From the NCBI GenBank assembly GCA_021513695.1, contig CP084166.1, positions 1,888,001 through 1,952,000 on the forward strand: a stretch of DNA of 64,000 bases, written 5' to 3'. The notes below the pieces were generated by a model, which was given only the letters and a program-made list of their open reading frames with translations, made no database searches and had not been told where the DNA came from. Positions within the stretch are counted from its first letter, which is position 1. Every line of letters begins with the position of its first letter. Positions 49,497 through 50,117 of this stretch are shown here, piece by piece. The DNA is from Candidatus Heimdallarchaeum aukensis (GTDB lineage: Archaea; Asgardarchaeota; Heimdallarchaeia; Heimdallarchaeales; Heimdallarchaeaceae). The translations under genes were made by a program, and so were the position numbers.

Positions 49497-50117
49497 ATGT
49501 TTCTTTCTCCTGACCTTTCTTACCTTGTTGGTGCCTTACGTGACGGTTCTGTTTACTATTATTCTCGGAATAGGTCTTACTATACTCTTTTTTATCAAAA
49601 GTATCGTTCTTGGCTTGTTCACTCTATTGGTAAGCGTATAACTAGATTATTTGGTTTAAACTATTCTATTGACGAATATAAGCGCGGTCATTATCGTCTT
49701 CGCATTTCAAGCAAGCGCTTGTATTCTCTCTGGATTGACCAATTTGGTTTTCCTCGTGAGGGTGAGACTCAGTTACACTGGGATGTTCCTCGTCTTATTT
49801 TAGATAGCGATCTTCTTACTCAGTCTTACTTTCTCCGAGCTTTTTTTGACACTGAGGGTGATGTTTCTCCTTCATCTAGTTCTACTTATTATCTTGGTTT
49901 AAGTCAAAAGAATACTACTGTTTTATATCAACTTAAATCTCTTCTTTCTTCTTTCGATATTAAAACTTCCTCCATTCATTTAGCTGATAAAAAGTCTAAT
50001 ACTTACAGGTTTAGTATTGTTGGCAAGGAAGAAATTTTCAAATTTAGGGACAAGATAGGTTCTGAGCACCCTGTTAAGAAAGAAAAAATTGACCAAATTC
50101 TTCTTTCCAGCGACTAA
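49497..50117 (+). CDS. LAGLIDADG homing endonuclease, double-motif, I-DmoI-like
   Basis: Motif 1 YLVGALRDGSVY near the N-terminus and motif 2 FLRAFFDTEGDV. HYRLRISSKRLY parallels I-DmoI YELRVSSKKLY, and IHLADKKSNTYRFSI parallels IHLDDHRHGVYVLNI. Its ~200-aa size is typical of rRNA-intron-encoded enzymes. Confidence 0.8.
   Translation: MFLSPDLSYLVGALRDGSVYYYSRNRSYYTLFYQKYRSWLVHSIGKRITRLFGLNYSIDEYKRGHYRLRISSKRLYSLWIDQFGFPREGETQLHWDVPRLILDSDLLTQSYFLRAFFDTEGDVSPSSSSTYYLGLSQKNTTVLYQLKSLLSSFDIKTSSIHLADKKSNTYRFSIVGKEEIFKFRDKIGSEHPVKKEKIDQILLSSD

Follow-up and report, generated by a model that had tools for sequence, protein, structure and literature searches.

A free-standing LAGLIDADG endonuclease gene resident beside the 16S rRNA gene of Candidatus Heimdallarchaeum aukensis, with relatives in 16S rRNA introns

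A stretch of 64,000 nt from Candidatus Heimdallarchaeum aukensis (CP084166.1, positions 1,888,001 to 1,952,000), termed the window here, contains a LAGLIDADG open reading frame (ORF) a short distance beyond the 16S rRNA gene. With moderate confidence, this ORF is considered to be a free-standing homing endonuclease gene that descended from an enzyme of the 16S rRNA intron at Escherichia coli position 908 and became resident at the flank of the 16S gene. The gene and its location have already been published (Wu et al., 2022; PMC8813620). New are its independence from HeimM2, the integrated element to which it was assigned, the existence of a conserved clade of such genes at 16S flanks, and the origin of this clade from position-908 intron endonucleases.

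The ORF has no internal stop codons, and its 206-aa product is 100% identical to UJG39918.1 of Ca. Heimdallarchaeum aukensis. Pfam places it in LAGLIDADG_3 (PF14528) with E 8.6e-13, its score of 48.8 bits being above the curated cut-off of 22.5. The likeness to I-DmoI is visible only via a family profile and a fold search, not via the single sequence: a single-sequence search of the Protein Data Bank (PDB) did not reach I-DmoI, and the top match was a VMA intein (E 0.11). A profile of nine sequences (the endonuclease and eight homologues) finds I-DmoI in the PDB with E 2e-10, residues 7–190 being aligned with 12–181. The AlphaFold (AF2) model (pLDDT 95.5, pTM 0.92) shows two alpha-beta-beta-alpha-beta-beta-alpha repeats, i.e. 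the DNA-binding saddle fold of LAGLIDADG proteins. In a Foldseek search of the PDB with this model the top 33 matches are all I-DmoI chains (best E 6e-11, TM 0.67–0.81), followed by the TliVMA intein, PI-PfuI and I-Tsp061I. An earlier note on this DNA, made from the sequence, had proposed a free-standing I-DmoI-like LAGLIDADG endonuclease that adjoins the rRNA gene and is not inside it, and it had pointed to both LAGLIDADG motifs. The Pfam, profile and Foldseek results and the collinear 16S gene bear this out. Motif 1 is SYLVGALRDGS, with D16, and motif 2 is FLRAFFDTEGD, with E120. The I-DmoI-like, two-motif LAGLIDADG identity of the ORF is confirmed.

D16 and E120 are invariant in 9/9 and in 28/28 aligned homologues. 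K35, Q137 and K138 are near-invariant among aligned homologues, and Q34 does not vary within the free-standing clade or among its nearest intronic relatives. The Asp of motif 1 in I-DmoI is D21. The Glu of motif 2 is E117 in I-DmoI, as given by the name of the PDB entry. In addition, a Gln-Lys pair follows strand beta-2 in both proteins, and the profile alignment sets Q34-K35 opposite Q42-K43 of I-DmoI. I-DmoI (PDB 1B24, 2VS7) is also a single-chain, two-motif protein of ~200 aa, and it is the best match both by profile and by fold. However, the two proteins are only ~20% identical, and K120 of I-DmoI has no counterpart, V123 being aligned there. They differ in genomic setting as well: I-DmoI is encoded in a 23S intron of Desulfurococcus mobilis, whereas the window gene is outside the rRNA and its nearest relatives are in 16S introns.

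The active site appears complete. The gene is intact and probably encodes an active DNA cutter, predicted to be a site-specific endonuclease. WhiA-type domesticated relatives have lost the catalytic residues and gained extra domains, such as an HTH domain. The present protein has no such traits; D16 and E120 are kept, the length is 206 aa and there are no extra domains. The WhiA Pfam model gives E 0.009 and 16.6 bits, under its cut-off of 23.2. The earlier note had named loss of the catalytic Asp/Glu, or a better fit to a maturase-only or other non-nuclease family, as grounds for abandoning the assignment. The residues are kept and no such family fits better, and the assignment survives.

The 16S gene is the sole copy in the H. 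aukensis genome (Wu et al., 2022; PMC8813620). It is collinear with the Rfam model and has no introns, and therefore the endonuclease gene is not inside an rRNA intron. The ORF starts 315 nt past the (duplicated) 16S end and is outside the 16S processing stem. An Rfam scan of 42400–51000, judged by E-value, finds the true 16S end and one tRNA only, with no exon-like rRNA flanking the ORF. The two halves of the 908 target of the relatives occur once in the window, contiguously, at 41886–41922 within the 16S gene. The earlier note had likewise recognized no flanking rRNA exon. A strict scan for bulge-helix-bulge (BHB) motifs put its top match off the intron borders inferred by blastn mapping in 9/9 intron-bearing control loci, and because these controls failed, a negative outcome around the ORF would be meaningless.

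Boxes comparable with the A/T-rich box upstream of the start codon are found at about −20 to −40 in 8/8 free-standing loci. A weak case can be made that the box in the window is the gene's own promoter and would give a leaderless mRNA. Features of the locus are listed in Table 1.

Table 1. Features of the 16S rRNA locus and the endonuclease cassette (window coordinates)
Feature	Position	Strand	Remarks
5′ arm, 16S processing stem	40879..40903	+	25 nt, 96% complementary to 42593–42617 and 49238–49262
16S rRNA gene, intron-less	41054..42531	+	Rfam SSU_rRNA_archaea 1336 bits, model 1–1478 over 1478 nt
Uninterrupted counterpart of ancestral intron-insertion/target site (E. coli ~908)	41886..41922	+	variant GCAAGGCTGAA/ACTTAAATGAATTGACGG
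Direct-repeat copy A	42511..42644	+	last 21 nt of 16S + trailer; element-type 4-nt insertion, T>C
Island, unique part	42645..49159	+	ORFs of 275 aa and 261 aa, 91-aa fragment, 1171-aa P-loop/LRR protein
Direct-repeat copy B	49160..49292	+	last 21 nt of 16S + trailer; ancestral 3′ stem arm 49238–49262
Endonuclease cassette	49293..50191	+	spacer, promoter-like box, ORF, 74-nt tail; in all H. aukensis-type contigs
TATA-like A/T-rich box	49463..49472	+	ATAAATTTAT; 25–34 nt upstream of ATG
Free-standing single-chain LAGLIDADG endonuclease gene	49497..50117	+	206 aa; D16, E120; Q34-K35, Q137-K138
Intron-containing tRNA-Arg(TCT), right-hand landmark	50620..50712	+	Rfam 51.5 bits, 21-nt insert at anticodon loop; ARAGORN agrees

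Scans of genome and metagenome collections yielded 114 further loci, onto which rRNA was mapped (loci and contigs are given L numbers here). The endonuclease family is overwhelmingly internal to rRNA genes, and its proteins group by insertion site. The sites are window-16S 851/852, a 16S site ~10 nt further, a 16S site near the 3′ end and several sites in 23S. The first of these corresponds to E. coli 908 and the second to ~919, and about 30 relatives occupy 16S introns at the first. Both 908 and 919 are known loci of endonuclease-bearing 16S introns (PMC4496867). The junction in the relatives reads ...GCAAGRCTGAA(A) / (A)ACTTAAAGGAATTGGCGG..., and in every related locus with a readable 3′ exon (~30) the intron splits ...CTGAA(A)/(A)ACTTAA[AG]G[GA]AATTGGCGG. 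The relatives thus indicate 16S position 908, and not the 23S gene, to which the earlier note had looked, as the ancestral target.

In a neighbour-joining (NJ) tree the free-standing proteins are monophyletic (97/100 bootstraps). Their clade groups with Thorarchaeota-type position-908 intronic endonucleases (83/100), the intronic neighbours being those of Thorarchaeota BC (L006, ~48–50% identical) and L043 (52–53%). The deeper branches around the clade are likewise all position-908 intronic. The free-standing clade is nested among 908 intronic enzymes, and therefore, by parsimony, there was one shift from an intron to a free-standing position, at the flank of the same gene. The earlier note had also offered a relic of an rRNA intron; this holds as evolutionary descent, but no intron or exon remnant is present at the site.

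The characterized endonuclease of the 16S position-908 intron is I-ApeI of Aeropyrum pernix; the relatives found in the present scans, that of Thorarchaeota BC among them, are uncharacterized. The window protein belongs to the same clade as the 908 intron endonucleases and is 42–53% identical to those of L043, L044, L006–L008 and L045–L048. Motifs and most beta-strand residues are held in common, and the host gene, 16S, is the same. The intronic genes, however, are inside a 600–900-nt intron that splits ...CTGAA/ACTTAAAGG..., whereas the window gene is past an intron-less 16S. Further, four substitutions in the predicted DNA-binding strands are fixed in the free-standing clade: Y22, N25, S27 and Y170, in place of D/E, S, N and L in its intronic sisters. 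These changes hint at a specificity that may be altered yet conserved. Three loci (L112, at 4031–4286, L113 and L114) have a ~257-nt mini-intron at 16S position 908 that retains only ~20 codons, and the peptide they encode matches the start of the window protein at 75% identity. It looks like a decayed endonuclease intron.

Orthologues of the window gene, 54–64% identical, are found 115–290 nt past the 16S 3′ end and on the same strand in L001, L002/L003, L004, L005, L040 and L041. These 16S-flank orthologues span at least five other Heimdallarchaeaceae lineages, and with the window gene the range of distances is 115–315 nt. The start of the free-standing ORF is always 57–235 nt beyond the processing-stem arm, and genes downstream of the orthologues vary among the six loci. 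One family member (L042) is in a different context, with no 16S end within 470 nt upstream. Apart from one inversion, L001 and the window are syntenic for adh_short, STT3, the PolD small subunit and an ORF of 132 aa. Between the two, identity is 64% for the endonuclease, 55, 59, 85 and 95% for four host genes and 93.5% for 16S.

Despite 36–46% protein divergence, 8/8 free-standing ORFs are intact. Their pN is 0.25–0.38 vs a pS of 0.55–0.93, and dN/dS is 0.1–0.4 where dS is computable, a value that comes from a minority of the free-standing pairs and is mostly uninformative in the others, where dS is saturated. The endonuclease gene would have been kept at the 16S flank through family-level divergence under purifying selection. 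Two other routes to Heimdall 16S loci were tried. A spurious ORF overlapping the 908 site, used as a probe for other Heimdall 16S genes, gave no candidates. Archaeosortase synteny failed as a guide beyond the genus Heimdallarchaeum, L126 and L128 having no 16S beside the archaeosortase gene. In L126, a related Heimdallarchaeaceae contig, the gene that adjoins the archaeosortase gene encodes a PolD large subunit (DP2) with a LAGLIDADG_3 intein (4922–9871), which belongs to the Pfam family of the endonuclease but is housed in an element of another kind.

The processing-stem arm and a hairpin that directly follows the 16S end are common to the 16S trailers of the window and its relatives. The hairpin (42532–42552 and 49182–49201 in the window; 519–545 in L001; L005) covaries between lineages (GGGGGGCCTCAGGCCCCTCC, GGAAGTCCTCAGGACTTCC, GGGTTCCTTCAAGGAACCC), and it probably serves in processing or termination as a conserved part of the trailer.

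The other major feature of the locus is an inserted island. It is 6,649 bp in length and is bounded by direct repeats of ~133 nt, each of which consists of the last 21 nt of 16S and ~112 nt of the 3′ trailer; the 3′ arm of the processing stem falls within the trailer part. The duplicated 16S terminus described in the earlier note is real and larger than described, 49160–49292 repeating 42511–42644. The endonuclease is to the right of copy B and outside the direct repeats. An endonuclease that is 99.5% identical (P0010) is present on five contigs of 4.7–99 kb from five samples (L119–L123). These contigs align with window positions 34000–42644 and 49160–51494, with 99.3–99.7% identity for the long contigs, and the two alignment blocks overlap by 130 nt. 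The 6,649 bp are therefore missing from these contigs, in which 16S is followed by one trailer copy only, then by the endonuclease and tRNA-Arg. Five independent samples and read-through contigs of 47–99 kb argue against assembly collapse of the 133-nt repeat. The endonuclease is a resident of the site, and not island cargo.

A three-way alignment shows that copy B equals the single copy of the island-free strains except for one base, just past the 16S end. The pattern of copies A and B is as expected if a circular element with its own 16S end and trailer had recombined into the chromosome. The crossover would have been to the left of the 4-nt indel, and Campbell-type recombination would duplicate ~133 nt of 16S end and trailer. 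In the strain of H. aukensis that was sequenced, the 6.65-kb island would have arrived after the endonuclease and integrated between this gene and the 16S trailer. Its unique part is the core of the published HeimM2. A CRISPR spacer that targets the LRR gene of the island has been reported by Wu et al. (PMC8813620).

Several repeats are found within the island. The 3′ half of the LRR gene (47165–48842) has ~25 tandem 66-nt (22-aa) repeats. A 153-nt segment at 45009–45161, in the 91-aa ORF upstream of the LRR gene, is 76% identical to 46985–47137 within that gene. A degenerate copy of the 16S 3′ terminus in inverted orientation (42718–42769; 75% complementary over 52 nt) is found close to the left border of the island, on its inner side and 185 nt past the true 16S end. 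It may be the scar of an earlier integration or inversion at a hot spot.

The sister species H. endolithica lacks the endonuclease gene. Its chromosome was approached from either flank of the locus, and 20 kb per side was examined. Homology to the window covers 16S and trailer, then stops, and resumes at 50197, shortly before tRNA-Arg. The interval between the homology blocks is occupied by ~2.9 kb of unrelated DNA and an incomplete copy of the trailer. Window positions 49293–50196 are missing from this interval, and with them the ~0.9-kb cassette at 49293–50191. A tblastn search for the endonuclease in the 20 kb on each side found nothing, and a protein database search gave no H. endolithica orthologue. 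The endonuclease gene is thus optional between sister species, present in H. aukensis-type contigs and absent in H. endolithica. The reconstructed empty junction of the cassette reads ...GTCTCAATTTTTCTTTCTT/AGATGGAAGTTGTTTG....

According to Wu et al., this site is occupied in H. endolithica by an integrated 44-kb element, HeimV2 (PMC8813620). Elements of this species are at the same trailer boundary without the endonuclease, and therefore integration at the hot spot needs no endonuclease in cis. The ~2.9-kb replacement DNA may be a relative of the HeimM2 island. A GC-richer island segment of ~95 nt (43075–43171) is 79% identical to the reverse strand of H. endolithica L130 (576–667), and both segments are ~370–430 nt past a trailer copy. 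In the conspecific contigs and in H. endolithica there is also a ~1.85-kb insertion at a point that corresponds to window 51482–51494 (L119, 12000–13846). It codes for a TnpB-like protein (Pfam Cas12f1-like_TNB, 422–483 aa) and splits an 803-aa ORF (50716–53127), whole in the window, into 214–217 and 551 aa; the two alignment blocks at the junction overlap by 13 nt.

The cassette boundaries in the window coincide exactly with a perfect 12-nt direct repeat, TTTTTCTTTCTT (49281–49292 and 50192–50203). It has three copies in the 64 kb, the third being on the minus strand at 50076–50087. The repeat is rare compared with shuffles of the whole window, yet it was matched in 34/200 shuffles of the local T-rich flanks, and no counterpart was found in other genera. 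It was set aside as probably due to chance.

If the free-standing homing endonuclease reading is right, the history of the gene would be as follows. The lineage would start inside the archaeal 16S rRNA intron at E. coli position 908, as the endonuclease encoded there. In an ancestor of Heimdallarchaeaceae the gene would have exited this intron and become established as a stand-alone cassette of ~0.9 kb just past the 3′ processing stem of that 16S gene, where a promoter of its own probably drives it. At least one species would later have lost it. The homing part of this account, cleavage and spread, would proceed by ‘intron-less homing’. The enzyme would cut alleles that lack the endonuclease, either in the 16S-908 region or at the trailer/empty-site junction, and repair of the double-strand break would then copy the cassette into them along with adjoining 16S sequence. 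Without the island, ~0.95 kb separate the 908 site from the start of the endonuclease ORF downstream. Free-standing endonucleases in T4 have a co-conversion range of ~2 kb (PMC2790892), and the 908 site therefore falls inside it.

Phage systems offer a parallel. The seg and mob genes of T4, and F-CphI beside psbA, are stand-alone nuclease genes next to a highly conserved gene that has a present or past intron site (PMC6083498). As in those systems, the gene lies in intergenic DNA and is optional between close relatives, and its presumed site is within co-conversion range (PMC2790892). The phage enzymes, however, are of the GIY-YIG, HNH or EndoVII type and their cleavage has been demonstrated, whereas here an archaeal chromosomal LAGLIDADG enzyme is predicted to cut. 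The window 16S also differs from the collaborative or trans homing pairs (F-CphI, MobE) in that it has no ORF-less intron. Such an intron is found, as an independent parallel, in two bacterial loci. In L103 (1562–2687) and L104 an ORF-less group I intron is near the 16S 3′ end, and a 232-aa LAGLIDADG ORF is 116 nt past the gene. A closely similar ORF is within a 16S intron in L105 (161–959). The layout of L103 and L104 resembles collaborative homing by F-CphI at psbA (PMC6083498). This suggests that movement of endonuclease genes between intron interiors and rRNA flanks is recurrent.

Several points weigh against the homing interpretation. Cleavage activity and target are predicted only. The host's own 16S has an uninterrupted 908-type site, and the ancestral specificity would be self-destructive unless a variant at ~+8 (G>T) protects. 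The 908 site in the window is ACTTAAATGAATTGACGGGAAAGC, vs ACTTAA[AG]G[GA]AATTGGCGGG[GA]G[AG][AG]C in all intron-bearing hosts with a readable 3′ exon; the canonical archaeal sequence is CGCAAGRCTGAAACTTAAAGGAATTGGCGG. H. endolithica has the identical variant and no endonuclease. Because of this shared variant immunity cannot be inferred, and the proposal of an endonuclease-linked immunity allele is unsupported, though not refuted, since variant and gene show no association at this depth. It should also be kept in mind that the descent tree is an NJ tree only, and that the promoter is inferred from A/T-rich boxes within AT-rich DNA. A clean empty site was not recovered, the H. endolithica interval being filled with other DNA. 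Lastly, the host-like divergence and the synteny with L001 fit long vertical inheritance, and a domesticated host function fits them equally well.

Domestication is the main rival to homing. It would make the ORF a LAGLIDADG protein with a host function at the 16S locus that is no longer selfish, for example in maintenance or recombination of rDNA, exclusion of 908 introns, or binding of pre-rRNA or rDNA. We regard it as possible, but would not put it higher than a minority view. It gains support from two genera, with 93.5% identity between their 16S genes, in which the ORF has an orthologous position and its neighbours are conserved, and from an endonuclease divergence (64% amino acid identity) within the 55–95% range of flanking host genes. 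All eight free-standing ORFs are intact with dN/dS < 0.4, the clade conserves Y22, N25, S27 and Y170 in its DNA-binding strands, and the gene has promoter-like boxes of its own. Yet the catalytic Asp and Glu and the Gln-Lys pairs are fully kept, unlike those of domesticated relatives such as WhiA. The gene is dispensable, being absent in H. endolithica, and the L042 member is away from a 16S gene.

Codon usage also argues against domestication, since it is atypical for the genome. The endonuclease gene favours T-ending codons (T3 0.59, A3 0.14), vs T3 0.26–0.43 and A3 0.37–0.52 in most other window genes. The bias is common to the orthologues of L002 and L041, and not to the other free-standing orthologues. 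The archaeosortase gene (39892–40623), which is on the other side of 16S and divergent from it, has a similar bias (T3 0.53). The plus strand changes from A-rich upstream of the 16S gene to pyrimidine-rich downstream.

A second alternative is that the ORF is a decaying remnant, a former homing endonuclease gene that became fixed and now drifts without function. The Goddard–Burt cycle (cited in PMC4496867) predicts decay after fixation. Loss of the gene in H. endolithica and the degenerate relatives in L112–L114 (the ~257-nt 908 intron with ~20 codons of ORF) would agree with this. However, the ORFs are intact in 8 lineages at 36–46% protein divergence, catalytic and structural residues are invariant, and pN is far below pS. 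Decay is accordingly very unlikely.

Wu et al. (2022, Nat Microbiol, PMC8813620) had already reported the endonuclease. They termed the 8-kb interval from 16S to tRNA-ArgTCT ‘HeimM2’, counted the gene as a component of it, and proposed that it was co-opted for site-specific integration between 16S and tRNA-Arg(TCT). The supplements of that paper contain no text on HeimM2 or the endonuclease. Locus and gene are the same as here, but the mobile part is defined here as 6,649 bp with the endonuclease as a pre-existing neighbour. That paper likens the endonuclease to group I intron enzymes, whereas the archaeal relatives sit at a known archaeal 16S intron locus; in ten loci scanned with Rfam, two of them archaeal and intron-bearing, group I introns were found only in bacterial ones.

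In favour of their proposal, the interval is an integration hot spot, used by HeimM2 and, according to the same paper, HeimV2 (PMC8813620), and no integrase-like ORF was noticed among the island ORFs, which were not profile-searched. The proposal is nevertheless very improbable and is already contradicted by the island-free conspecific contigs, which carry the endonuclease at the same place. The gene is outside the direct repeats, the 16S–endonuclease layout is found in other genera without the island, and H. endolithica has elements at the same point without the gene. Furthermore, a resident enzyme would need to cut its own chromosome to aid an incoming element. The same facts, the position outside the repeats, the presence in island-free conspecifics and the H. 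endolithica elements (HeimV2 of Wu et al.) without the gene, speak against the suggestion in the earlier note that the endonuclease made the break repaired by the island. Among the three options offered there, it is the free-standing endonuclease that is supported.

The least probable alternative is that a split rRNA or an rRNA intron persists in place as a relic, the ORF being within a BHB-bounded pre-rRNA segment with cryptic exons. It draws on the position downstream of a second 16S 3′ terminus and on the intron-encoded relatives, but it is already contradicted: the complete 16S gene follows its model collinearly, the second terminus is the end of a duplication made by island insertion and absent in conspecific strains, and the ORF is outside the processing stem with no exon-like sequence downstream.

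As to other landmarks, the tRNA at the right of the locus is the one named ArgTCT by Wu et al. (PMC8813620). Elsewhere in the window, Rfam predicts a tRNA of 113 nt at 23036–23148 (56.3 bits), presumably intron-containing, which ARAGORN does not call.

The free-standing endonuclease reading, to which we now return, has several consequences. The published annotation is corrected, in that the endonuclease is an older resident of the site and not HeimM2 cargo, and the true mobile unit is defined as the 6,649 bp between ~133-nt repeats of 16S end and trailer. The locus provides a phylogenetically supported case of an archaeal rRNA-intron endonuclease that became a free-standing gene flanking its former host gene. 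This direction is opposite to the proposed route by which free-standing endonucleases invade introns, and it bears on how endonucleases persist after intron loss. In practical terms, the clade offers compact, mesophilic I-DmoI-type scaffolds whose predicted target is probably derived from rRNA.

A further thought, which we hold only tentatively and consider rather doubtful, is that the free-standing clade is neither merely selfish nor dying but is a long-term partner of the single-copy 16S of Heimdallarchaeaceae. It might recognize the 908–926 region, which is near-universal but in this family has an unusual, bacteria-like form, AAATGAATTGACGG (archaeal: AAAGGAATTGGCGG), or the 16S end and trailer. 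If so, the endonuclease would shape the evolution of the rRNA, exclude 908 introns, or provide the hot spot for HeimM2 and HeimV2. With the bacterial parallel of L103 and L104, the move from an intron interior to the 3′ flank of an rRNA gene would then be a general step in the life cycle of homing endonucleases.

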